Positions 52,141 to 62,827 of a DNA stretch of 64,000 nt are shown here, in pieces. This DNA is from an uncultured Bacteroidota bacterium. GTDB lineage: Bacteria; CLD3; SB21. The stretch covers positions 15,094 to 79,093 of the forward strand of contig CAZRTJ010000007.1 in assembly GCA_964602985.1 (NCBI GenBank). The letters are read 5' to 3'. Position 1 is the first letter of the stretch; the number at the start of each line of letters is the position of its first letter. A model generated the notes under the pieces. That model made no database searches and was not told the origin of the DNA. It was given only the letters and a program-made list of their open reading frames with translations. Both the position numbers and the translations under genes were made by a program.

Positions 52141-53506
52141 TAGTCTGGCCCACCCGGAAGCACAGGCTCTCGTCAAAGAAATTACCGATGACTTGAATTC
52201 CAATGGGCATCTTGTCTGAGTCAACGCCGACGGGCACGGACAGGGCCGGCACTCCCGCGATGTTGATGTTCACGGTGTAGACATCCGAAAGATACATGGC
52301 CAGTGGATCGGCGACCTTCTCGCCGAGGCGGAAGGCGACAGTGGGGGACGTGGGCGCGACGATGCAGTCGACCGCCGGATCGCCCGTGAAGGCATTGACA
52401 AAATCTCGCTTGATCAGCGTGCGGACCTTTTGCGCCCGTCGATAGTAGGCATCGTAATATCCAGCGCTCAGAACATATGTGCCGAGCATGATTCGCCGCT
52501 TCACCTCGGAGCCAAATGCTTCCGAACGCGATTCGACGAAAAGCTCTTTCGCGCTGTCGGACTTCTTCGCGCGGTGTGTGTATCGAACACCGTCATATCG
52601 GGCCAGGTTTGAAGACGCTTCGGCCGTGACGAGGATGTAATAGGTCGCAATTCCGTATTCGGTGTGCGGCAATGAAATGTCGCAAATCTCCGCTCCTTGA
52701 GCAGCCAGACCTCGTATGGTTTGTTCAATCGCCTTCTGAACGGCGGGTTCCATGCCCGAACCGAAATATTCCTTTGGAACGCCGATCCGAAGACCCCTGA
52801 CGCCGCCGCCGCAGAAATTTACATAAGTCGGCACCGCTACCGGTGCGGTCGTACTGTCGCGCGGGTCCTGACCCGCGATGACCGAGGTGATGGCGGCCGT
52901 TTCTCGGACCGTTTTCGCCATAGGGCCGATTTGATCAAACGACGACGCGAATGCGGCCAAACCATATCGGGAGACACGACCGTACGTCGGTTTCAATCCG
53001 ACGACGCCGCAAAATGAAGCGGGGAGGCGAACCGATCCGCCCGTTTCCGAGCCAAGCGAACCGTTACACATTCCCGCGGCGACTGCGACAGCGCTTCCGC
53101 CGCTGGAGCCACCGGCGACCCGCTCGGGATCGATCGGATTCCGGGCCGGACCGTAGGCGGAGTTCTCATTGCTGGAGCCCATCGCGAATTCGTCCAGGTT
53201 GGTCTTTCCGATGATCAGGGCATCGGCCGCGCGCAGCCGTTCAATGACCGTCGCAGAATAGGGGCTGATGTAATTTTCGAGAATCTTCGACCCGGCCGTC
53301 ATGCGCACGTCGGCAACGCAGATGGCGTCTTTGATGCCCATGATGACGCCGGACAAACGGCCGGCATTGCCATCGTGGGCCTTCTGGTCAATGGCGTCCG
53401 CCTCACGGCGCAACGTGTCTGCGTCGCGAACGGTCAGAAAGGCATTCAGATTCTGTTTCTGGGAAATAGCGGCGAGGCAAGCCTCAAGATTCTTGCGGCA
53501 GGACAT
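52121..53506 (-). CDS. gatA: Asp/Glu-tRNA amidotransferase subunit A
   Basis: IKD, GKTNLDEFAMGSS.E.S, GGSSGGSA, GSETGGSVR, KPTYGRVSRYG, EVKRRIMLG. Confidence 0.97.
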   Translation of the reverse strand: MSCRKNLEACLAAISQKQNLNAFLTVRDADTLRREADAIDQKAHDGNAGRLSGVIMGIKDAICVADVRMTAGSKILENYISPYSATVIERLRAADALIIGKTNLDEFAMGSSNENSAYGPARNPIDPERVAGGSSGGSAVAVAAGMCNGSLGSETGGSVRLPASFCGVVGLKPTYGRVSRYGLAAFASSFDQIGPMAKTVRETAAITSVIAGQDPRDSTTAPVAVPTYVNFCGGGVRGLRIGVPKEYFGSGMEPAVQKAIEQTIRGLAAQGAEICDISLPHTEYGIATYYILVTAEASSNLARYDGVRYTHRAKKSDSAKELFVESRSEAFGSEVKRRIMLGTYVLSAGYYDAYYRRAQKVRTLIKRDFVNAFTGDPAVDCIVAPTSPTVAFRLGEKVADPLAMYLSDVYTVNINIAGVPALSVPVGVDSDKMPIGIQVIGNFFDESLCFRVGQTIEDLSK

Positions 53507-53516
53507 TCGACAGAGG

Positions 53517-53699
53517 CTACTTCTTGTCCGAGCCTTCGGTCAATCCCTTTTTGATTTCGTCTTCCGTGTCACGCATGGCGCGTTTGAATTCGCGAATTCC
53601 TTTTCCCAATCCCTGGGCGAATTCGGGAATCTTCTTTGCGCCGAAGAGTATCAGCACCGCGACACTGATGACGATGATTTCCGGCATTCCGAGATTCAT
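53517..53699 (-). CDS. tatA: Twin-arginine translocase subunit TatA/E
   Basis: MNLGMPEIIVI..LILFGAKKIPEFAQGLGKGIREFK; GGAGG RBS; real start 53699. Confidence 0.95.
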   Translation of the reverse strand: MNLGMPEIIVISVAVLILFGAKKIPEFAQGLGKGIREFKRAMRDTEDEIKKGLTEGSDKK

Positions 53700-53741
53700 G
53701 TTTCCTCCATGGTAACCGCATCTTGTCGATGCGGGATAGTG

Positions 53742-53812
53742 CTGGAACGCAGGGATTCGAACCCCGATTAATGGATCCAGAGTCCACTGTCCTACCGTTG
53801 GACGACGTTCCA
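53742..53812 (-). tRNA. tRNA-Gln (anticodon CTG)
   Basis: TGGAACG-TC-GTCCAACGGTAGGAC-A-GTGGA-CTCTGGA-TCCAT...GGGTTCGAATCCC-TG-CGTTCCA-G; U1:A72 as in Gln tRNAs; CCA not encoded. Confidence 0.96.
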
Positions 53813-53863
53813 ATGACGATGGGTAGATAAAGAAATTTTGCGTTTCATGCAACATTGAAATGG

Positions 53864-54081
53864 CCCCCAACCCCTCCCATCTCCCTTCCCTTACGCACAT
53901 GGAAATCTCGGGTAGGTCAAATCCGAGTCGCGCAACCCCTCCCATCTCCCTCCCTTACGCGCACCGAATCAGGCGATACGTAAAATCTGACTCGCGTAAG
54001 GGGAGGGCAGGGTGGGGTTATATCCGCCTCACGCACATATGATTGCTTGGCGCAAGATCAACATCGCGTAAAGGGGACGGC
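53864..54081. repeat. Palindromic (REP-like) repeat cluster 1
   Basis: Left arms AACCCCTCCCATCTCCCT(T)CCCTTACGC at 53869 and 53934, right arm CGCGTAAGGGGAGGGCAGGGTGGGGTT at ~53993-54019, conserved tail. Confidence 0.9.
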
Positions 54082-54263
54082 AACGTCGGATTGGGTGGGT
54101 TAGGTTGCACGGACAAGGCTTGCGCATCCCGCTATCGAGTAGCGGCAACCTTCGATTCAAATCCTGTCTTCTTATGCGAACCGTCGCAAAAAGGCTTGTT
54201 CTCGCTGCGTCCAAGGGGCCCGTTGTACTCACAGTCAATTTCATGTCCGGTATCGCCGGCCCC

Positions 54264-54617
54264 TCAGTGGTGAATTGTAATGGAATCGCGCGTCAATTCG
54301 ACCACATGGCTCGTTTTTAGAGCGTCCGTCACTGCCCTAAGGTGGTCCGAGAAAATCTGCATCAGCTGACTGTTCCGTATATTGCCTGTCGTCACAAGAA
54401 GAAGCTTGTAGGGCTGTCGGTGAAGAAGGAATGTGTCCAAGAAATCGTGGTCCTTCGTAATAACGACTCTCCGTTGTTGCATTGACAATCTTATGATCCG
54501 GGCGTCAGTCGTCAAATTCTTCTGAGGTAGCTCAAGCGTATGGATTGCATCATGTGCCTCCTCCCTAAGGAACTCGGCAAGCCGCAAGGGAAGTTGAGCA
54601 TCAACCACAAACTTCAT
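54264..54617 (-). CDS. DUF5615 PIN-like toxin (VapC45-like)
   Basis: MKFVVDAQLP..LA..L, HDA.H, D..I, RVVITKDHDF. Confidence 0.9.
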   Translation of the reverse strand: MKFVVDAQLPLRLAEFLREEAHDAIHTLELPQKNLTTDARIIRLSMQQRRVVITKDHDFLDTFLLHRQPYKLLLVTTGNIRNSQLMQIFSDHLRAVTDALKTSHVVELTRDSITIHH

Positions 54618-54856
54618 GAAACAAGCCTATGCACCGTCTTCACACGAGTGAGACTTGAAGCATAGGACAAGGCGGCCAGGATGTCTTGTCTGTCGAGGTC
54701 AGGATAATCATTGAGAATCTCGTCAATGGTCATCCCGGAACTGAGCAGTTCGAGGATATTCTCGACCGGATATCGCAGGTTGCGAATAGTTGGCTTGCCG
54801 TGGCAAACGTCAGAATTGATTGTGATTCTATTCAGTAAATTTCTTTTCTTGGCCAT
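54614..54856 (-). CDS. DUF433 antitoxin (VapB45-like)
   Basis: RITINSDVCHGKPTIRNLRYPVENILELLSSG.T..EIL.DYP.L...DI.AAL.YA; GGAGG RBS; start 54856; ATGA overlap with the toxin gene. Confidence 0.93.
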   Translation of the reverse strand: MAKKRNLLNRITINSDVCHGKPTIRNLRYPVENILELLSSGMTIDEILNDYPDLDRQDILAALSYASSLTRVKTVHRLVS

Positions 54857-54921
54857 ATCAAACCTCCACATGCAACATAAGGAAGTGAACGGACAAAGAC
54901 AAAAGACCGTTTTTTTGGTCC

Positions 54922-55515
54922 AACCCCTCCCATCTCCCTCCCTTACGCGCATGGAAATGTCGGGTAGGTAGAATCTGAGTCGCGTAACCCCTCCCATCTC
55001 CCTTCCCTTACGCACATGGAAATGTCGGGTAGGTAGAATCTGAGTTGCGTAACCCCTCCCATCTCCCTCCCCTTACGCGCATGGAAATGTCGGTCAGGCA
55101 GAATCCGAGTCGCGTCAACCCTCCCATCTCCCTCCCCTTACGCGCACCGAATCAGGCGATACGTAAAATCTGACTCGCGTAAGGGGAGGGCAGGGTGGGG
55201 TTATATCCGCCTCACGCACACCTATGATTGCTTGGCGCAAGATCAACATCGCGTAAAGGGGACGGCGGTGCGATGTTGCGCGGCCGGTGCATTCGACAAG
55301 GAACGAACATTCGTTCCTCTACACTGTCCTTGAGCTTTTGCCTTTACGGATGACATGTCTGCGTCAACCCTCCATCTCCCTCCCCTTACGCGCATGGAAA
55401 TGTCGGTCAGGCAGAATCTGAGTTGCGTAACCCCTCCCATCTCCCTCCCCTTACGCGCACCGAATCAGGCGATACGTAAAATCTGACTCGCGTAAGGGGA
55501 GGGCGGGGTGGGGTT
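54922..55515. repeat. Palindromic repeat cluster 2 (three tandem ~65-nt half units, full hairpin, spacer, half unit, full hairpin)
   Basis: Left arms at 54922, 54986, 55051, 55117, 55366, 55429; right arms ending 55202 and 55515. Confidence 0.92.
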
Positions 55516-55532
55516 GGCAGATCAACTCGTGG

Positions 55533-55565
55533 AAAAATAAAAAACCCCGACCGAAGTCGGGGTTT
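55533..55565 (-). terminator. Rho-independent terminator of the Ig-like lipoprotein gene
   Basis: Minus strand AAACCCCGAC-TTCG-GTCGGGG-TTTTTTATTTTT; C(UUCG)G tetraloop; 21 nt after the stop. Confidence 0.92.
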
Positions 55566-55586
55566 AATGGCAGAAGAAAAACTAGA

Positions 55587-57470
55587 TTAGAACGTAAGCG
55601 TGTCGCCATTCGGATCGATACCGTTACCGGCCAAATCCGTCAAACCATTTCCAATATCCAGAACATCGCCACCGTCGATTGAACCGTCTGTGACGGTCAG
55701 CCGGACTACGTACTGGTTCGTGAAAATTCCAACGCTGGTATAACCGTAGTACACTGCCCCCGAAATGACCGTCGCAACTCCGCCGCCGGCATTATCGATG
55801 CTGTAGTTACCAATGGTTTCGGCATCGGCTTCATCGATGGGCTCGCTGAACGCGACGTACACGTAATCACCGTTTCCGGCAAGAACATCACCCTCTGTAT
55901 TAAGGTCCCAAGTTCCATCGAGAACGGGCTCGACAGCATCGTCCACTGTGATCGTGTTGCTTGCGGCTCCGACGACCAGATTCACGCTGACCGCACGAAC
56001 CTGATAGGAAACATCCAGCGCGCGACGTGGGTCGTTACCGCCCGTATGCAGTGCGCCTGTGTTGTCCGTGTAGTAAGTCTCAGTAGTACGGTCGATTTCG
56101 TCAAACGCCGTCTCACCAGCGGCTCGTCGGTAAATGATGAATTCTTTGACCGCGATCGAGCTCTCGTCGATCGTCCACTCGAGAGTTACGTTACCGCCAG
56201 TATAATCGAGATCGACTGACGTCGGATCTTTCGATACGACTGGAGCGGCCGGCGCAGTCGCCGAGCCCTGGGTCGTGAAGTCGAGGGCCTCGAAGTCACC
56301 CGTGATATCAGCATTGTCCACGGTACCATTCCCAGCTCCGTCCGTGAAATTGCTGATCGCGGATGAGAGATCGAAGGTGTAATCCGCATTCGGAGCAAGA
56401 GCCGTTCCGGGTGTGAAGGTCAGAGTAGTATTTCCGTTGGACCAGGCGGCGGTAAAACCAATCTCGGCAAAGGACTTCTTCAGACCATTGTAGGTAAAAG
56501 AAATATCGTCGAGGAAGGTGTTATTGCCGATCGGGAGAGCCGTATTGGTATACGCATTCTGTTTGATTGGCTCACTGAAGGTAAACACAATCGCCGTTGC
56601 GGTGGCGACGTCAGCGTCGTTTTCCGGAGTGATCGACGTCACGAAGGGCTCAGTATTGTCGCGATTCGACAATGCCAACCGCTCGGCCGAGACCTGAGTC
56701 AGCAGCATCGGATCCTGCCCGCAAGTAAGGCTCACGGAGATGTTATCCGTGAAGATTTTCGTCGCATCCCATGCTTCGATCGTCAAACCGCTGCGGCCGT
56801 TTTCGACGTTCGTGAACGTGTAGTTGCCGTTTGCGTCTGTCGTCGTCGACTTGACCACATACGTGTTACCGATGCCGTTGCTGTGCTTCAGGAGAACTGT
56901 AGCACCAGCCGCAGCCGCGTATGTTTGTCCGTCCACAACCTGACCCATGATGGTCGTATTCAAGGCGCCGACTTCGATGTCCGTCATGCTGGACACGATT
57001 CCATCAACCGGCGTGTCCGCACCAGAGCCAGACTCGCCGTCTGTGCCAGCGCTGTTATCCCCGTCATTGAGATCGGCAAAATACACTTCGACGTAGTCCT
57101 CGTAAATGTCCGGGTACTTCAGCGAATCCGGCTTATTCTTGTTATAATCCCGGAAGTCCATCAGAACCTCATATCCATCCCAGTACGTCCAATCGCCGTT
57201 GCTGTAAGTGGCTTCACTGGTGACGGGCACATCACGGAATACGAATTCACCGTTTGAATTCGTCGTGACCTCGGACTTGCCAGCCAGGTTGACCTTCACG
57301 CCCGCAATAGGGTGTCCGGAACAGCGATCGAGCACGCGGCCCAGAACCGTTCCCAGGAAATTCTTCGTTGACGGATTCACGCTGGCGATGTCTTTGTTGA
57401 CATCGTCGCAACCCAGGCCGCCCACGAAGAGGCTCAGCGCAACCAGCGCCAAGAACTTGACGTTCTTCAT
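55587..57470 (-). CDS. Large acidic surface lipoprotein with carboxypeptidase-regulatory-like and Ig-like (Big) domains
   Basis: Lipobox GLGC; GRVLD..SGHPIAGVKV..TNSNGEF.F and GQVVDG..TTTDANGNYTF; DNTEPFVTSITP..I.FTFSEPI and VAFSEPID..TDLAGN (Big_5-like); D/T/N/G-rich; GAGGAGG RBS. Confidence 0.85.
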   Translation of the reverse strand: MKNVKFLALVALSLFVGGLGCDDVNKDIASVNPSTKNFLGTVLGRVLDRCSGHPIAGVKVNLAGKSEVTTNSNGEFVFRDVPVTSEATYSNGDWTYWDGYEVLMDFRDYNKNKPDSLKYPDIYEDYVEVYFADLNDGDNSAGTDGESGSGADTPVDGIVSSMTDIEVGALNTTIMGQVVDGQTYAAAAGATVLLKHSNGIGNTYVVKSTTTDANGNYTFTNVENGRSGLTIEAWDATKIFTDNISVSLTCGQDPMLLTQVSAERLALSNRDNTEPFVTSITPENDADVATATAIVFTFSEPIKQNAYTNTALPIGNNTFLDDISFTYNGLKKSFAEIGFTAAWSNGNTTLTFTPGTALAPNADYTFDLSSAISNFTDGAGNGTVDNADITGDFEALDFTTQGSATAPAAPVVSKDPTSVDLDYTGGNVTLEWTIDESSIAVKEFIIYRRAAGETAFDEIDRTTETYYTDNTGALHTGGNDPRRALDVSYQVRAVSVNLVVGAASNTITVDDAVEPVLDGTWDLNTEGDVLAGNGDYVYVAFSEPIDEADAETIGNYSIDNAGGGVATVISGAVYYGYTSVGIFTNQYVVRLTVTDGSIDGGDVLDIGNGLTDLAGNGIDPNGDTLTF

Positions 57471-57638
57471 CGTAACCTCCTCTAAGTTAAAGGGTAATGT
57501 TTAGGGAAAATATTCACGACAGAGAGTAGAAACAGAATTTTTAAATCAAGTAGTAACAATTACTTAATTTGCCTCACCGTTGTTGGTTTCGTATACGTTT
57601 CATAATGCGACGAACCAGTTCGCATTGTAGGGCACGGG

Positions 57639-57667
57639 AGAATAAGCAAAAGTCGACGCCATGTCAA
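57639..57667 (-). promoter_or_regulatory. Putative sigma70 promoter of the Ig-like lipoprotein gene
   Basis: Minus strand TTGACA (57667-62), 17 nt, TATTCT (57644-39); followed by a ~160-nt AT-rich leader. Confidence 0.65.
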
Positions 57668-57707
57668 GCCCATGTTCTTTTTTTCTTAGGTTTATTACTG
57701 GACCCAC

Positions 57708-58048
57708 AACCCCTCCCATATCCCTCCCCTTACGCACTTGAAAGGTCAGGGACATAAAATCCGAGTTGCGTAAGGGGAAGGTCGGGGTGGGGTTGCGTCC
57801 GCTTACGCACATCGATGATTGCTTGGCGCAAGATCAACATCGCACAAAGGGGATGGCAGCGCGGTGTTGCGGCGCTGGCGCATTCACAAAGAGCGATCAT
57901 TCGTGCCTCCGGAGTTACAGCGTCCTTGGGCTTTCGCGTTTACGGATGACATGTCTGCATCAACCCCTCCCATATCCCTCCCCTTACGCGCACCGAATCA
58001 GGCGATACGTAAAATCTGACTCGCGTAAGGGGAGGGCAGGGTGGGGTT
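57708..58048. repeat. Palindromic repeat cluster 3 (hairpin-tail-spacer-hairpin, homologous to 55117-55515)
   Basis: Left arms at 57708 and 57962; shared tail GATTGCTTGGCGCAAGATCAACATCGC and TTTACGGATGACATGTCTGC. Confidence 0.9.
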
Positions 58049-58065
58049 GGCAGATCAACGCGGGG

Positions 58066-58100
58066 AAAAACAAGAACCCCGACCGAAGTCGGGGTTCTTG
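58066..58100 (-). terminator. Second copy of the UUCG-loop terminator, downstream of the truncated paralog
   Basis: CAAGAACCCCGAC-TTCG-GTCGGGGTTCTTG-TTTTT on the minus strand. Confidence 0.88.
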
Positions 58101-58117
58101 ATCCAAGGATATATGGA

Positions 58118-58254
58118 TTAGAACGTGAACGTGTTGGCGTTCGTATCCATCGCATTGCCCGCCAAATCCGTGACGCCGGATAGGGTGAGGACTTCCGTCG
58201 CGACAACGGACGCATTATCCACCGTCAGACGGACACAGTAGCCGTATCCGAATC
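58118..58254 (-). pseudogene. 3'-terminal fragment of a paralog of the 55587-57470 Ig-like lipoprotein
   Basis: My translation: GFGYGYCVRLTVDNASVVATEVLTLSGVTDLAGNAMDTNANTFTF* versus NQYVVRLTVTDGSIDGGDVLDIGNGLTDLAGNGIDPNGDTLTF*; both end ACGTTCTAA; no start; abuts repeat DNA at 58255. Confidence 0.85.
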
Positions 58255-58478
58255 CAGGGACATAAAATCCGAGTTGCGTAAGGGGAAGGTCGGGGTGGGG
58301 TTGTATCCCCTTGCGCGCACGGAACTGTCGCGTAGGTAGAATCTGAGTCGCGTAACCCCTCCCATCTCCCTCCCCTTACGCGCACCGAATCAGGCGATAC
58401 GTGAAATCTGACTCGCGTAAGGGGAGGGCAGGGTGGGGTTATATCCGCCTCACGCACACCTATGAGTGCTTGGCGCAA
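58255..58478. repeat. Palindromic repeat cluster 4 (begins mid-unit)
   Basis: 58255-58303 is identical over 49 nt to 57747-57795; degenerate half unit; full hairpin 58354-58440 plus tail. Confidence 0.9.
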
Positions 58479-58602
58479 ATTCATCATGGAAATTCTCCAC
58501 CAAACAGTATTAGCTTCGACTGCCAGTAGGCAGCTATCGACATTCCGTGCGCTGGCGAAAGGGTAACGCACTTCATCAATGAATTTTTGAAATGGTAAAC
58601 GT

Positions 58603-59820
58603 ATGAGAACCGCAGAAATCGTGGAAAGCCTGGCCCAACGGACCGAATCCAAGATCGTTTTGCTCGTCCTGGATGGGTTGGGCGGCATTCGGACGCAGAA
58701 GGCGCCGAAGACTGAACTGGAGTTGGCCAATATCCCTAATCTGAATCAACTCGCAAGGAATGGAGTGTGCGGTCGGATCACGCCCGTTTCGCCCGGAGTT
58801 ACGCCGGGAAGCGGGCCGGCTCATTTCAGCCTCTTCGGATATGATCCCACCGAGGAATCCATCCAGATCGGACGGGGTGCGCTCGAGGCACTGGGATTGG
58901 GCATGGATCTCAAAGCCGGAGACGTGGCGACCCGCTGTAACTTTGCGACCATCGACTCGCAAAGCCGTCTGACGGATCGCAGGGCGGGCAGAATCCCCAC
59001 CGAGGAATGTGTCCGATTGTGTCAATTGCTAACCAGGTCCCTCCGTCGCATCGACGACGTGGACGTCGTGATCGAACCCGGAGAGCAGTATCGCTTTGTC
59101 GTCGTCTTCAAGGGACCGGGTCTGGGTGGAGAAATCGAGGACACGGATCCACAGGTGACGGGCGTACCGGCCCTGTCGGCCGTTCCGCGCAACGAGGCCT
59201 CGCGCAAAATGGCCTCCCTTGCAGACCGCTTCATCGCGCAGGCAAACGCCCTGCTCGCAAAGGAGACGAAAGCCAATTCCATCCTCATGCGCGGCTTTTC
59301 TGCCATGCCACACGTGCGATCCATGTCTGACCGGTGGAAATTGCGCCCGGCCTGTATAGCGACGTATCCGCTGTACCGCGGGGTCGCCCGAGTCGTCGGG
59401 ATGGAAATTCTGCAAGCGGGGACGGAGATTGCAGACGAATTCGCCGCACTGGAAAAGCACTGGAATGATTTCGATTATTTCTTCATTCACATCAAGAAGA
59501 CCGACTCCTACGGCGAAGACGGCAATCCGCAGGGAAAGATCAAGATTCTGGAGGAGGTTGACGGCCACATCCCGATGATTGAAAAACTGAACCCAGCCGT
59601 GATCATGGTCACGGGCGACCACTCCACGCCGCCGCCGATGAAAAGCCATTCGTGGCATCCGGTGCCGTTCTTGTTGAAAGCGGAACACTGCGGCATCGAC
59701 GACGCGGCGGCATTTGCAGAAGCGGAATGCTCGAAGGGTCAGTTGGGTGTCTTCCCATCCTATCACATCACGGAACTGGCCCTCGCCAATGCCGGCAAGC
59801 TGAAGAAGTTCGGCGCTTGA
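58603..59820 (+). CDS. apgM: 2,3-bisphosphoglycerate-independent phosphoglycerate mutase (ApgM type)
   Basis: VLLVLDGLGG, TPGSGPAHFSLFGYDP, GRGALEALG, HIKKTDSYGEDG, VTGDHSTP, SHSWHPVP. Confidence 0.93.
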   Translation: MRTAEIVESLAQRTESKIVLLVLDGLGGIRTQKAPKTELELANIPNLNQLARNGVCGRITPVSPGVTPGSGPAHFSLFGYDPTEESIQIGRGALEALGLGMDLKAGDVATRCNFATIDSQSRLTDRRAGRIPTEECVRLCQLLTRSLRRIDDVDVVIEPGEQYRFVVVFKGPGLGGEIEDTDPQVTGVPALSAVPRNEASRKMASLADRFIAQANALLAKETKANSILMRGFSAMPHVRSMSDRWKLRPACIATYPLYRGVARVVGMEILQAGTEIADEFAALEKHWNDFDYFFIHIKKTDSYGEDGNPQGKIKILEEVDGHIPMIEKLNPAVIMVTGDHSTPPPMKSHSWHPVPFLLKAEHCGIDDAAAFAEAECSKGQLGVFPSYHITELALANAGKLKKFGA

Positions 59821-60758
59821 TGAAATCGGCTCGTCAGGTGGCCCGGCAGTTGTGGCGCGAGAAGATTCGGCGATGGCGCAGGGAGCGCAGGCGTTTGCGG
59901 TCGCGCGTGACGGAGGAAGCCATTCATGAATTTCGCGTAGCCACGCGTCGCCTGCGGGTTGCGCTGGGAGTATTTGCACCGCTGACGGCTCACCCGCCAG
60001 TCATCCGCGATCTGCGCAAGCGGCTTCGTGCGGCGGCATCCGTTCTCGGTGCGGCAAGAGATGCGACGGTCCACGGACAACACCTCACGCGTCACCTGAA
60101 CTCTCTCCATCTGCAAGAGGTCCTGGCGGATTGGATGTCCATCCGTGCGCATGAAAAGGCCAAGTTATTCCAAGCCGCGGCCGACATGGACACCGCAGAA
60201 GCCGAACGACGTCTGGAAGCCTTCGAGCGATATCCGCACTTGTGTCATGAGTCCGGATCGGGAGGGGAGTACCTTTTGCACCGCACGCGTGAGGCGTTGC
60301 AACCGGTGGCCTTGTTTGAGAATTTTCGCGAATCGGTTGGCGATCCGCACCGGATGCATGATTTGCGGATTCGAATCAAACGATTTCGCTACGCGTTGGA
60401 AATGCTGAATTCCATCCGGGAAAACGAGCTGGAGGAAATGGTTCGGACCACGAAACGATTGCAGGATCATCTGGGCATTATCCACGATCTGGACACGCTG
60501 GCAGACCGTATCCGTGCCGACGTGTCGTGGCTGAATGACGAGTCGCGCGTGGCGGACATCCTGCGCACGCCCGCCGATGACGACGACATGCGACGACTGA
60601 CACTCGAACTGTCCGTGAAACAAACCGGAGTCGTGCGCGACGCGTTGTTACGCCTCTTCACGGCGATGATGGAGGAGCGACAAGAACACGTGAAGGCGTT
60701 GCTGTCGGACTGGGCGCCGGCGATGAGTCAGTTTTCCAAAATCATGGAGGATGAATGA
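59820..60758 (+). CDS. CHAD domain protein (polyphosphate-binding)
   Basis: EAIHEFRVATRRLR, LGAARD..V, MHDLRIRIKRFRYALE, LQDHLG.IHD; start reset to 59820 (TGATG). Confidence 0.9.
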   Translation: MKSARQVARQLWREKIRRWRRERRRLRSRVTEEAIHEFRVATRRLRVALGVFAPLTAHPPVIRDLRKRLRAAASVLGAARDATVHGQHLTRHLNSLHLQEVLADWMSIRAHEKAKLFQAAADMDTAEAERRLEAFERYPHLCHESGSGGEYLLHRTREALQPVALFENFRESVGDPHRMHDLRIRIKRFRYALEMLNSIRENELEEMVRTTKRLQDHLGIIHDLDTLADRIRADVSWLNDESRVADILRTPADDDDMRRLTLELSVKQTGVVRDALLRLFTAMMEERQEHVKALLSDWAPAMSQFSKIMEDE

Positions 60759-61249
60759 ACCTCTACATCTTGCGTCATGGTATGGCCACCGAGGTGGGTG
60801 GCAAGATCAAGCGTGATTTTGACCGCCCGTTGTCCGAAGAGGGAATCGAAAGCCTGAAAATTTCAGCGCGAGCGATGAAACGACTCGACGTCAAGCCGGA
60901 CCTCATTCTGAGCAGTCCGCTGGTTCGGGCTAAACAAACCGCAGAAGTCGTCGCCACAATCCTCGACGCCGAAGATCGGATCGAGATTTGCGAATCACTC
61001 GGGATACCGTGTGATCACACGGCTCTCGCCGATCGATTGGGAAACATTTCGGACAGGCAGACGCTCATGCTCGTGGGACACGATCCGGATATGAGCCGGT
61101 TGCCGGGATGGTTCGTCGGCGTGCCGGAACTCGTGCTGCCATTCAAGAAGGGAAGTTTGTGCTGTCTGGAAACCACGTTGCACCGTAGAAAATTCACCGG
61201 CAGCATCCGGTGGTTCCTGCATCCGAAACAGCTTAAGTTGATGGCGTAA
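60755..61249 (+). CDS. sixA: Phosphohistidine phosphatase SixA
   Basis: LYILRHG.A, DFDRPLS.EG, ILSSPLVRAKQTA, LVGHDP. Confidence 0.92.
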   Translation: MNLYILRHGMATEVGGKIKRDFDRPLSEEGIESLKISARAMKRLDVKPDLILSSPLVRAKQTAEVVATILDAEDRIEICESLGIPCDHTALADRLGNISDRQTLMLVGHDPDMSRLPGWFVGVPELVLPFKKGSLCCLETTLHRRKFTGSIRWFLHPKQLKLMA

Positions 61250-61264
61250 ACGACGGAAGGTAGA

Positions 61265-62827
61265 ATGAGGAGCAGAAGCCATCCGTATTTAGCGGCGATT
61301 GACATCGGGACCAATTCGTTTCATCTGGTCATCGTCGAGATGTTGCCTTCTGGGAAAATCAAAATCGTTGACCGGGAGAGAGAATCCGTTCGTCTCGGGC
61401 ATGGCGCGAAGGACATGAAGGAGATTTCCCCCGAGGCCATGCAACGTGGGATCGTGGTCTTGAGGCGATTCCATCACCTCATCGACAGCTACAAGGCGCC
61501 GGTCCGTGCCGTCGCGACCAGCGCCGTGCGCGAGGCATTGAATCAAAAAACGTTTCTGCAGCGTGTCCATCGCGAGGCGGGCATTCGCGTCGAGGTGGTA
61601 TCCGGAACGGAAGAGGCGCGTTTGATTTATTTGGGCATCCTGCAAGCGCTGCCGGTTTTCGATCAGCGCGTCTTGCTGATCGACATCGGAGGAGGAAGCG
61701 TGGAATACGTGAACGGTTACAAAGGCGAGCCTCGATACGCGACGAGTTTGAAACTAGGATGCATTCGTCTGACACAGAAGTTCTTTGGGAAGACCACACG
61801 CCCCAAAGATATCAAGGCCTGTCGGGAATACGCGCGTGGATTCTTGGAAACCGCCCGGCGCGAGATGCGTCGTCTCGATTACGAGTACGCGATCGGTAGC
61901 AGTGGGACCATTCAGAATATCGGCAACATGATCCGTGCGGCGCGGGGCGAGATCCTGACGGCGTCTTTGAATAACGTGTCTTTTGAACGAGCGGAACTGG
62001 ACCACATCGTCGGGGAAATCGTTCATGCCCGCACGAGACGCGAGCTTTTGGCGATCCCCGGACTCGATCCGAAACGCGGCGACATCATCCTGGCGGGTGC
62101 GCTCGTACTGCAGGAATCGTTCCGGGTGTGGAAGATCGATCGGATGACGATATCCGATTTTGCTCTTCGGGAAGGAATTATATTCGATTTCCTGAAGAAC
62201 CGCCTGGCCAAAGAAGGATCCGAACATCTGTCGAATTTGCGGTACCAGAACATCCGCAGGCTGGGGGAGGCCTTTCACTACGACAAGGGGCATGCGGACC
62301 ATGTGACGCGGCTGGCCTTGCAATTGTTTGACCAGTTGGGTTCGCTCCACGAACTCAGTCGGCAGGAAAGGGACGTCTTGGAATACGCGTCGCTGCTGCA
62401 CGAAATCGGTTTTTTCGTTTCCCATGCTCAGCATCATCGACACTCGTATTACCTGATCCGAAACGCGGAACTCATGGGGTTCACCGATACCGAGAAGGCC
62501 ATCATTGCCAACGTGGCCCGCTATCACCGCAAGAGTCATCCGAAAGCGAAACACGAGGGATTTGCAGACTTGCCCATGCGGGAGCGGGACGTGGTTCAAA
62601 AGTTGGCGGCCATGTTGCGTATTGCGGACGGGTTGGATCGATCGCACATGGGTCACGTCAGAGACGTCAGATGCAGAATCGGCCGGAAGGAGGTCACCGT
62701 GCTGGCCCGCACCAAACAAAAGAACATCGATCTTGAGATTTGGGCGGCCAATCTGAAAAAGGGTCTGTTTGAAGAAGTCTACGGCCGGTCGATCACCATC
62801 CGCAGGACAGCGACGAGGAAGACCTAA
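61265..62827 (+). CDS. ppx: Ppx/GppA exopolyphosphatase with C-terminal HD domain
   Basis: AIDIGTNSFHL, VATSAVREA.N, G.EEARLIY, DIGGGS.E, GSSGT, ALREG, HEIG...HHRHSYY. Confidence 0.93.
   Translation: MRSRSHPYLAAIDIGTNSFHLVIVEMLPSGKIKIVDRERESVRLGHGAKDMKEISPEAMQRGIVVLRRFHHLIDSYKAPVRAVATSAVREALNQKTFLQRVHREAGIRVEVVSGTEEARLIYLGILQALPVFDQRVLLIDIGGGSVEYVNGYKGEPRYATSLKLGCIRLTQKFFGKTTRPKDIKACREYARGFLETARREMRRLDYEYAIGSSGTIQNIGNMIRAARGEILTASLNNVSFERAELDHIVGEIVHARTRRELLAIPGLDPKRGDIILAGALVLQESFRVWKIDRMTISDFALREGIIFDFLKNRLAKEGSEHLSNLRYQNIRRLGEAFHYDKGHADHVTRLALQLFDQLGSLHELSRQERDVLEYASLLHEIGFFVSHAQHHRHSYYLIRNAELMGFTDTEKAIIANVARYHRKSHPKAKHEGFADLPMRERDVVQKLAAMLRIADGLDRSHMGHVRDVRCRIGRKEVTVLARTKQKNIDLEIWAANLKKGLFEEVYGRSITIRRTATRKT

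Follow-up and report, generated by a model that had tools for sequence, protein, structure and literature searches.

Between positions 53864 and 58478 of the window (the whole stretch of DNA that was analysed, 64 kb), a family of intergenic repeats was delimited. It is probably a lineage-specific, non-coding and non-autonomous mosaic repeat, resembling REP/BIME, pneumococcal BOX and E. coli BoxC elements, that amplifies locally and destabilises its locus. The family adds a new case to an ordinary class of intergenic repeats in bacteria.

The family consists of 11 C-rich left arms (L) and seven G-rich right arms (R), every one on the + strand. These counts and the common orientation had been given in a preliminary description of this DNA, and a fuzzy search of the window recovered all of them (11/11 L and 7/7 R). 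With arm patterns allowing ≤3 mismatches, nine L and five R matches were found in the 64 kb; the expectation from shuffles was 0. The other 59 kb of the window yielded no L or R copy with either the arm patterns or the fuzzy search. The earlier statement that the arms are found nowhere else therefore holds inside the window; beyond it, contig depth and loose ends reveal further copies in the same metagenomes.

The L block is a 20-nt C-tract, CCCCTCCC-ATCT-CCCTCCCC, and the R block is a G-tract in inverted orientation, GGGGAGGG-CA-GGGTGGGG. The inverted 7-mers TTACGCG and CGCGTAA alternately bracket the 20-nt tract block and a 30-31-nt insert. As a general rule, already recognised in the preliminary description, the L arms terminate in TTACGC(A/G), followed by the insert and (T/C)GCGTAA; the closings at 53929 (CGCGCAA) and 55111 (CGCGTCAA) are the two exceptions. 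The inserts have conserved ends and a variable core and belong to a few homologous types with near-identical variants. The arrays are mosaics of the form [L-insert]n-L-insert-R, with n = 0-3 and a 65-nt period; the half-unit periodicity noted before was measured at 64-65 nt. The elements are strictly extragenic. They sit between an intrinsic terminator and the next promoter and end up after the terminators of minus-strand genes, upstream of promoters. The preliminary description had overlooked the modular grammar, the fact that a segment of the locus was duplicated and parts of it deleted, and the G-quadruplex/triplex character of the arms. The features of the locus are:

53864..54095, + strand: cluster 1, L(53868-53897)-insert A'-L(53932-53961)-insert B-R(53993-54019), then a degenerate X module
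54020-54095, + strand: the degenerate X module of cluster 1, L'-insert D-R'
54130..54244, - strand: zf-CDGSH pseudogene (one internal deletion, one frameshift); the relative L017 has an intact gene
54264..54856, - strand: DUF433 (antitoxin-like)/DUF5615 PIN-like (toxin-like) gene pair, between two L-B-R-X blocks
54916..55270, + strand: cluster 2a, three tandem 65-nt L-insert A units (L arms 54920, 54985, 55051); in its 3' part L(55116)-insert B-R(55176-55202), then an X module (55203-55270)
55271..55361, + strand: Y spacer, copy 1, a non-coding linker ~80% conserved versus 57861-57959, within the duplicated block
55362..55517, + strand: cluster 2b, L(55365)-insert A-L(55429)-insert B-R(55489-55515)
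55542..55565, - strand: intrinsic terminator of gene1, AAACCCCGACTTCGGTCGGGGTTT then a T-run
55587..57470, - strand: gene1, a 627-aa secreted protein with CarboxypepD_reg and Big_5 domains, repeat clusters on either side
57703..57860, + strand: cluster 3a, L(57707)-insert C-R(57767-57794) and an X module
57861..57959, + strand: Y spacer, copy 2
57960..58050, + strand: cluster 3b, a complete L-insert B-R hairpin
58071..58100, - strand: intrinsic terminator of gene2 (the lost paralog), nearly identical to that of gene1
58118..58252, - strand: remnant of gene2, the tandem paralog of gene1, with the final 44 codons left
58255..58478, + strand: cluster 4, a truncated insert C with R(58275-58302) and an X'-like unit with an A-type insert (58311-58355); in its 3' part L(58354)-insert B-R(58414-58440) and a truncated X

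Cluster 1 adjoins the -35 region of the tRNA-Gln promoter, cluster 2b lies directly downstream of the gene1 terminator on minus-strand reading, and cluster 4 stops 125 nt upstream of apgM.

The locus has been rearranged repeatedly. The block 55196-55590 is duplicated at 57789-58120, and the duplication of this ~390-bp block took in the 3' end of a tandem gene pair and its terminator. Between the two copies, L-B-R and the terminator are near-identical, whereas the coding 3' ends next to them have visibly diverged far more; the gene1 terminator and its GGCAGATCAAC linker belong to the conserved part. The 5' side of the gene2 remnant is fused to an insert C at a point midway in the insert (58250/58255). 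This join is a deletion junction, and most of the tandem paralog has been deleted. Furthermore, the short-read contigs of four runs (X1-X3, X20) skip one 65-nt unit, and in X2 the depths of the two forms sum to a single copy. The form lacking the unit is likely a second haplotype, hence a unit polymorphism, but could alternatively represent a paralogous locus.

In the sister lineage L018 (~89-90% nucleotide identity), the family is present in a shorter, different arrangement with another unit number. Against L018, identity is 90-95% across L-B-R and its surroundings and 96.6% across the non-repeat promoter region of gene1, and a higher conservation of the repeats than of their flanks was rejected on these values. 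The more distant L017 (~70% nucleotide identity) has the order gene1-terminator-CDGSH-tRNA-Gln-tatA-gatA, without the repeats and without the toxin-antitoxin pair. None of the other relatives carries the family, and those at ~70% identity are also devoid of analogous repeat families. The summed word depth (~370-450 on the L arm and ~200 on the R arm, versus ~20 for single-copy sequence) suggests ~20 L and ~10 R arms genome-wide, 11 and 7 of them at this locus, figures that derive from assembler word depth in metagenomes rather than from a closed genome and that co-occurring strains could inflate. Diverged copies also form the ends of two other contigs at genome depth, and copies with other flanks do exist.

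Scans with the 20-mer CCATMTCCCTYCCCTTACGC through 596 Gb of GTDB genomes and through JGI metagenomes returned only single chance matches inside unrelated genes. A gapped hairpin pattern retrieved one unrelated terminator-like hairpin from viral contigs, blastn against plasmids gave no match, and a word-indexed search with the six-frame repeat peptides, used as bait for mis-called ORFs at other copies, came back empty. An exhaustive HMMER search with a 111-aa repeat ORF produced three multi-stretch matches only, which are read as low complexity. Judged from these sequence searches, the family appears confined to a single uncultured bacterium from sludge and to its sister lineage.

Such a distribution can be pictured as follows. 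Unequal crossing-over or replication slippage between the 65-nt direct repeats would change the unit number, segmental duplication would add further copies at the locus, and the few more diverged copies at other loci may stem from transposition in trans. The arms, as hairpin or cruciform, G-quadruplex and triplex-type blocks, would stall replication and promote rearrangement.

Among known systems, the BOX element of S. pneumoniae, boxA-(boxB)n-boxC, is a close parallel. BOX is modular with a variable number of boxB, longer arrays are more variable, and no transposase is encoded (PMC3049150). Both are composite intergenic repeats whose terminal modules pair with each other and whose internal module occurs in variable tandem number; in both, the length differs between strains and no transposase is encoded. 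The sequences themselves are dissimilar on inspection. Moreover, the 65-nt tandem unit of the present family includes the full left arm, leaving many left arms unpaired, the tracts are GC-rich C/G tracts, and the ~20 copies lie mostly at one locus, compared with >100 dispersed copies of BOX. There is no terminal inverted repeat with a target-site duplication, and the complete units have no duplicated flanks.

The second parallel is BoxC of E. coli (also PIT or TMECO), an intrastrand-triplex motif of the form CCCTCNCCC-N3-6-GGGNGAGGG-N3-GGGNGAGGG, which is associated with loci rearranged between strains (PMC4666352). Here too, a C-block is followed by a complementary G-block and a second, mirror G-block with A replaced by T, and the elements are strictly intergenic, often in inverted pairs, without a mobile-element gene. 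The blocks are, however, 8 nt long and of another sequence (9 nt in E. coli), and the 34-37-nt consensus CCCTCNCCC...GGGNGAGGG does not occur. The first loop is a 45-nt stem-loop (TTACGCG-N31-CGCGTAA) instead of 3-6 nt, both arms are double blocks (C-C ... G-G), and the lineage is unrelated and uncultured, with a triplex that is predicted from sequence.

Complete L-insert-R units (n = 6) fold with -49 to -55 kcal/mol as RNA and about -29 as DNA, at z-scores versus shuffles of -5.6 to -6.6 and about -6, respectively; the hairpin of cluster 3b reaches -52.8 kcal/mol as RNA and -29.5 kcal/mol as DNA (z about -6). According to these folding models, the complete units can form a ~90-nt hairpin or cruciform, and they contain the two-inverted-arm hairpin that characterises REPINs (~70-110 nt). 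Half units are no better folded than shuffles (z -0.75 and +0.35), and most left-arm units are without a partner arm.

The preliminary description had regarded the structure as under selection, from base changes in two stems. For the innermost pair, the bases given there are right: A:T in units 55008 and 57730, G:T at 55386 and A.C at 53891. When the degenerate D-type units are counted, A occupies the 5' closing position six times, opposite T in two and opposite C in four, and the covariation score is 0.066 versus 0.068 in shuffles (266/500 equal or higher); co-variation is thus not above chance. In the proposed second inner stem, the TCAG of B inserts and the TCGG of A inserts are offset by three columns and hence do not occupy homologous positions, and pairing is seen in only 58% of the helix cells; here too, co-variation above chance was not confirmed. 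In the long L:R stem, 17 of 24 pairs are invariant and one compensatory change, common to two orthologous copies, was found; the remaining variable positions disrupt pairing. The R arm shows uncompensated changes, GGGGAAGG in C-type copies and GGAGAGGG in L018. With covariation not above the controls, mostly unpaired half units and these uncompensated changes, the claim of selection on the structure could not be upheld: nothing indicates that selection maintains base pairing, nor that the element encodes a functional RNA. This analysis rests on ~8 distinct full hairpins only and has little power, so weak selection on the structure might still be present.

A genuine REP/REPIN family, mobilised by a RAYT (Y1 HUH transposase) encoded elsewhere in the genome and piled up here in a BIME-like manner, is unlikely. 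The extragenic location, the imperfect hairpin of REPIN size made of two inverted arms, with its conserved mismatch and internal loop, and the copies with different flanks elsewhere would all suit it; mosaic clusters with conserved linker motifs, positioned after terminators, are likewise known from REP/BIME. On the other hand, the individual arms are non-palindromic, unlike REPs, their ends are without the conserved GTAG-type 5' tetranucleotide, and the tandem units are direct and co-oriented where BIMEs alternate. REPINs have tens to hundreds of dispersed copies; here, the depth estimate gives a low copy number (~20 L and ~10 R arms), more than half at one 4.6-kb locus. None of the ORFs of the 64-kb window encodes a transposase, a Y1_Tnp (PF01797) RAYT, an integrase/tyrosine recombinase or a cas gene. 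The earlier remark that no RAYT, transposase or DUF559 partner is present is borne out for all substantial window ORFs. The general class proposed at that time, a REP/REPIN-like, non-autonomous palindromic element, stands as the best reading; a structured ncRNA, named there as another possibility, is unlikely.

The arms have a marked potential for non-B DNA. Each is a four-tract G-quadruplex motif on one strand and also a triplex-type mirror block, and 15 of the 16 G-quadruplex motifs in the window fall within arms. In B-type copies, L2 CCCTCCCC, R1 GGGGAGGG and R2 GGGTGGGG (antiparallel, T opposite A) fit the C-G-G / T-A-T triad pattern, in comparison with the motif published in PMC4666352. 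G-quadruplex, triplex and cruciform structures are known to stall replication and to favour rearrangement; by analogy they would do so here, and this potential would fit the deletions, pseudogenes and strain-to-strain rearrangements at the locus; alternatively, the presence of direct repeats alone could account for the latter.

It is quite unlikely that these arms are functionally selected, as recombination or replication-pausing signals or as transcriptional insulators, promoting the exchange of surface-gene segments or isolating transcription units. Besides the concentration of G-quadruplex motifs, such a function would be consistent with the T.T mismatch conserved in the hairpins, a requirement of a purine-motif third strand as in BoxC/TMECO, and with the L-C-R hairpin of cluster 3a, ~40 nt upstream of the gene1 -35 hexamer (57667). 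It would also suit the replacement of the C-terminal ~370 aa of gene1 in sister strains that have kept the N-terminus, the promoter and the repeat block downstream. However, several copies have eroded G- and C-tracts with no compensating change, and neutral repeats acting as portable homology predict the same pattern. Within the population, no variation of gene1 was seen (in X1-X3 it lies on one 2,262-bp contig of genome depth), and its only 'silent' copy is the 44-codon stump.

A more specific proposal is that selected non-B-DNA arms and the conserved terminator-repeat block drive a cassette-like replacement of the C-terminal ~370 residues of gene1, a pilE-G4-like surface variation in an uncultured FCB-type lineage; this is highly improbable. 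The pilE G-quadruplex of Neisseria, as reportedly described by Cahoon and Seifert in 2009, acts together with the Sma/Cla repeat in pilin antigenic variation. The likeness consists of a G-quadruplex motif upstream of a surface-protein gene with a variable 3' part, and of a 3' partial paralog that has a conserved downstream repeat in common. Here, a donor repertoire is missing apart from the 44-codon stump, no variation within the population was seen, and the G-quadruplex motifs are many and on both strands; the comparison is purely an analogy.

A structured non-coding or cis-regulatory RNA on a + strand transcript is very unlikely, even if the hairpins are very stable and the + strand G:T pairs would become G:U wobbles. 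Covariation does not exceed that of shuffles and half units are unstructured. In Rfam, tRNA alone passes the gathering threshold; the hairpin has no family match even at permissive thresholds, the best sub-threshold hits being generic hairpin noise (miRNA models, 27 bits versus a gathering threshold of 77). The elements lie behind the terminators of minus-strand genes and no promoter-like site is directed into the arrays, the sole + strand candidate being inside gene1. Moreover, L018 differs from the window in unit number, which probably also varies inside the X1-X3 population. One metatranscriptome contains fragments of tatA and gene1 (few low-depth contigs) and none on the repeats, at a coverage far too low to decide.

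Sites of attC type from a sedentary integron remnant (CALIN), with the toxin-antitoxin pair and gene1 as cassettes, are still less plausible, and this reading, like that of a MITE, was rejected on defining features. The repeats are indeed co-oriented, structured, imperfect palindromes of ~90 nt that start with AAC and finish with GTT, and short gene-bearing segments, one with the toxin-antitoxin pair, lie between them. Yet the R boxes (GTTATAT, GTTGGCA, GTTGCGT, GTTGTAT) agree with RYYYAAC/GTTRRRY in the AAC/GTT triplets only, the tandem half-sites are foreign to attC, and no tyrosine recombinase is encoded in the 64 kb. Neither the breakpoints that separate the window from L018 nor the deletion junction 58250/58255 fall at the G|TT crossover point, and gene1 has a promoter and a terminator of its own. 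As for a degenerate or orphan CRISPR array (34-nt repeat, 31-nt spacers), it is effectively refuted: despite the CRISPR-like 65-nt period and segment lengths, the 'spacers' are homologous to one another, in a few near-identical variants whose ends are conserved, the 'repeat' is also found inverted, as the R arm, and the window is without cas genes.

The mosaic repeat is of practical importance, as the region is a repeat-driven assembly breakpoint where every short-read assembly examined breaks. The repeats would also cause false calls by CRISPR finders and ORF callers, and annotation as an RNA gene is inadvisable. A new mechanism would be at hand only if the non-B-DNA or the surface-variation reading were true. 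With this family, an uncultured sludge lineage adds an example of a low-copy mosaic repeat combining a hairpin, G-quadruplex and triplex-type blocks. The repeat coincides with a locus of duplication, deletion, pseudogenisation and allele replacement, and this coincidence agrees with a proposal made for E. coli BoxC/TMECO, namely that motifs of this type are markers of locus instability.

The repeats of this locus are best read as a lineage-specific, non-autonomous mosaic repeat, which we regard as a fairly probable interpretation. The family reported in the preliminary description is real: it comprises 11 C-rich left arms (L) and seven G-rich right arms (R), all co-oriented. By direct reading of 53500-58900 and by repeat finders, which returned a period of 64-65 nt, it is limited to 53864-58478 within the 64-kb window. 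The left-arm core CCCTCCCATCTCCCTCCCCTTACGCG has nine matches and the right-arm core GCGTAAGGGGAGGGCAGGGTGGGGTT five, at up to three mismatches and all on the plus strand, against 0 expected from dinucleotide shuffles. The indel-tolerant search of the 64 kb recovered every arm and found no arm-like sequence outside 53864-58478. The repeat region breaks all short-read assemblies. Its junctions with unique sequence are reproduced in short-read contigs of several independent metagenomes; hence, it is not an assembly artefact.

The palindromic unit first described holds, but its modularity had been underdescribed. Two inverted 7-mers, CGCGTAA and TTACGCG, alternate through the arrays and enclose, by turns, a 20-nt tract block and a 30-31-nt insert. 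In the L arm, this block is made of C-tracts (CCCCTCCC-ATCT-CCCTCCCC); in the R arm, it lies in inverted orientation and is made of G-tracts (GGGGAGGG-CA-GGGTGGGG). Inner units with the pattern TTACGCR-N31-YGCGTAA can be read 16 times in the window. Their inserts, conserved at the ends and variable in the core, belong to four types: A (six copies), B (five, essentially identical), C (two) and the degenerate D (three, plus one truncated). The arrays follow the formula [L-A]n-L-B-R, with n = 0-3, or L-C-R, often followed by an X module (a degenerate L'-insert D-R' unit) and a non-coding Y linker of ~90 nt. More insert variants and other flanks are seen where contigs from the metagenomes have loose ends.

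On the minus strand, the genes and repeats of the locus are arranged in the following order, with apgM at the far side:

apgM, plus strand, far side of the region, adjoining the gene remnant
58118-58252, minus strand, remnant of a lost tandem paralog of gene1 (its final 44 codons and terminator)
repeats
55587-57470, minus strand, gene1 with its promoter, CDS and terminator, encoding a 627-aa secreted CarboxypepD_reg/Big_5 protein
repeats
54264-54856, minus strand, DUF433/DUF5615 toxin-antitoxin-like pair
54130-54244, minus strand, zf-CDGSH pseudogene (an intact 70-aa gene in the relative L017, 2243-2455)
repeats
tRNA-Gln, tatA and gatA

The earlier statement that no RAYT, transposase or DUF559 partner is present was borne out, as none of these domains (Y1 included) was detected in any substantial ORF of the 64-kb window. 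A true REPIN family, driven by a RAYT, is a doubtful alternative. From the gene order, the elements are placed downstream of intrinsic terminators, shortly before the next promoter: 40 nt separate a repeat element from the -35 hexamer of gene1 and, by direct reading, ~12 nt from the -35 region of tRNA-Gln. That they constitute a selected recombination or insulator signal is slightly less probable still. The terminators at 55542-55565 and 58071-58100 (minus strand) have a common stem, AACCCCGAC...GTCGGGGTT, ending in AACCCC/GGGGTT, the same ends as those of the L...R hairpin. This terminator is older than the repeats, since it also occurs in the repeat-free L017 (2143-2170). The DUF433 (80 aa) and DUF5615 PIN-like (117 aa) genes overlap by 4 nt, a typical type II toxin-antitoxin arrangement. 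Two co-oriented L-B-R-X blocks of ~160 bp flank this pair, which could be excised via homologous recombination between them.

Complete L-insert-R units are predicted to form ~90-nt hairpins. Folded as RNA, they have energies between -49 and -55 kcal/mol; folded as DNA, the value is about -29 kcal/mol. Both strands fold well beyond shuffles (z about -6), and the palindrome is real. Half units, composed of L and an insert without R, do not fold better than shuffles (z = -0.75 and +0.35). Selection on the structure had been deduced from compensatory changes in the innermost pair and in a second inner stem. Among 15 of the 16 inner units (the truncated insert C at 58255 was left out), the covariation score is 0.066 vs. 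0.068 in shuffles, 266 of 500 shuffles reaching or exceeding the observed value. The innermost, closing pair is G:C in six distinct rows, A:U in two, G:U in one and unpaired in three. Only 58% of the cells pair in the second stem, and its TCAG and TCGG versions are offset by three columns, so that the positions said to co-vary are not homologous. Eight full hairpins were compared, of which the window supplied six and the sister lineage L018 two: 17 of 24 pairs are invariant; a two-sided change was found at one pair, in two orthologous copies and therefore as one event, and the remaining variable positions disrupt pairing. With covariation at the shuffle level and one compensatory event, the proposed selection is unsupported. 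An Rfam search gave no family match for the repeats, and a structured RNA is an unlikely explanation.

L018, with ~89-90% nucleotide identity to the window in apgM and the 5' part of gene1, has the same repeat family in a shorter arrangement (apgM, [X'-R-C-L], gene1 promoter), without the remnant paralog and the second block. Its R arm carries a slipped deletion inside the G-runs. The repeats are 90-95% identical between the two, and conservation above other intergenic DNA was rejected because the gene1 promoter region is more identical (96.6%). In L017 (~70% nucleotide identity to the window; gene1 ortholog 82% identical), the order is gene1, terminator, intact CDGSH, tRNA-Gln, tatA and gatA, with neither repeats nor toxin-antitoxin pair. 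This locus approximates the ancestral empty state. Comparable repeats were not found in the other relatives examined. The apgM-CHAD-His_Phos_1-Ppx/GppA-PLD block (58603-62827) is syntenic in all relatives (L012, L014-L016). The DNA upstream of apgM is different in each: one relative has HD_4 there, a second has ribosomal protein L31, and the window has the repeats, which locates the repeats at an old synteny breakpoint.

Several rearrangements are visible at the locus. A segmental duplication (55196-55590 and 57789-58120) spans the X, Y and L-B-R modules together with a linker, the terminator and the gene's 3' end; between the copies, the non-coding parts are near-identical, whereas the coding tails are, on inspection, much more diverged. 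The remnant tail resembles most the upstream paralog of an intact tandem pair in the relative L019 (25 of 40 residues), indicating that a tandem pair once existed and that its upstream gene was mostly deleted. The deletion junction at the 5' end of the remnant falls inside an insert C. In the CDGSH pseudogene, the N-terminal codons (MKLTVSTTGPL) and the C-terminal part ENKPFCDGSHKKTGFESKV are joined in different frames, with ~30 codons deleted, among them the first Cys cluster. Furthermore, four metagenome runs (X1, X2, X3 and X20) contain a contig form in which 58308 is joined to 58374, a loss of precisely one 65-nt unit. The X2 depths for this form (8.2) and for the window form (5.7) together approach the single-copy depth of 13, which suggests two co-existing haplotypes differing in unit number; the shorter form may instead represent a paralogous locus.

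The C-terminal ~370 aa of the gene1 product are strain-variable (window 55587-57470, minus strand; L018 1066-2967; L017 222-2120). Residues 1-250 of L018 are 86-98% identical to the window and those beyond 25-48%, whereas L017, though more distant, shows ~82% identity throughout. Contigs of strains X6 and X10 also fail to align to the 3' part. The pattern suggests a replacement by an allele or paralog through recombination.

Four-tract G-quadruplex motifs are concentrated in the arms, with 15 of the 16 in the window: five on the plus strand (R arms) and 10 on the minus strand (L arms). Each L arm forms a homopyrimidine mirror repeat; in the R arm, GGGGAGGG precedes a mirror copy of itself in which T replaces A. 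The T.T mismatch that results, conserved in seven of the eight full hairpins (every one with a surviving outer arm), fits the requirement of a purine-motif third strand (T.A-T triad). Triplex, G-quadruplex and cruciform structures at the arms are a predicted potential. The blocks follow the grammar CCCTCNCCC-N3-6-GGGNGAGGG-N3-GGGNGAGGG of the E. coli BoxC/PIT/TMECO motif, which is intergenic, frequently found as inverted pairs, not linked to mobile-element genes and associated with loci rearranged among strains (PMC4666352). In the present family, a 45-nt stem-loop replaces the first loop of the motif. That the G-quadruplex/triplex arms drive the strain-level replacement in gene1 seems very improbable.

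Pattern scans covering GTDB, with each species represented by one genome, and the JGI metagenomes gave chance matches only, and neither the viral-contig scan nor the plasmid search returned anything relevant to the family. The source organism is present in sludge and bioreactor metagenomes; its ApgM has at most 72% identity to any other recorded protein, and proteins of Krumholzibacteriota and WOR-3 are ~54% identical to it. In run X1, the summed word depth is ~370-450 for the L arm and ~200 for the R arm, compared with ~20 for single-copy flanks, suggesting a total of ~20 L and 10 R arms. Two contigs at genome depth (10,039 and 21,961 bp) terminate in more diverged repeat copies (~87% identical). 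Over half of all arms appear to lie in this locus, with a few older copies at other sites.

Integrase and Cas domains are likewise absent from the substantial ORFs of the window; an attC/CALIN array is very improbable, and a CRISPR array can practically be discounted. The analysis demonstrates the module grammar and its potential to form hairpins, the segmental duplication and deletion junctions at the locus, the family's lineage restriction and the absence of a partner gene from the window. In architecture, the mosaic repeat is nearest to the pneumococcal BOX, whose end modules pair around an internal module repeated in tandem a variable number of times (PMC3049150), and in arm composition to BoxC/TMECO. 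How it amplified, by which route copies came to other sites and whether non-B structures had a causal part are matters of inference: local amplification would have occurred through unequal recombination or slippage, plus segmental duplication, and the repeats would supply substrates for deletions and rearrangements of this locus. The family, for which structural selection is unsupported, adds one more to a kind of intergenic repeat already known from bacteria. Its importance would grow only if the arms were proven to drive the replacement of the gene1 C-terminal part.
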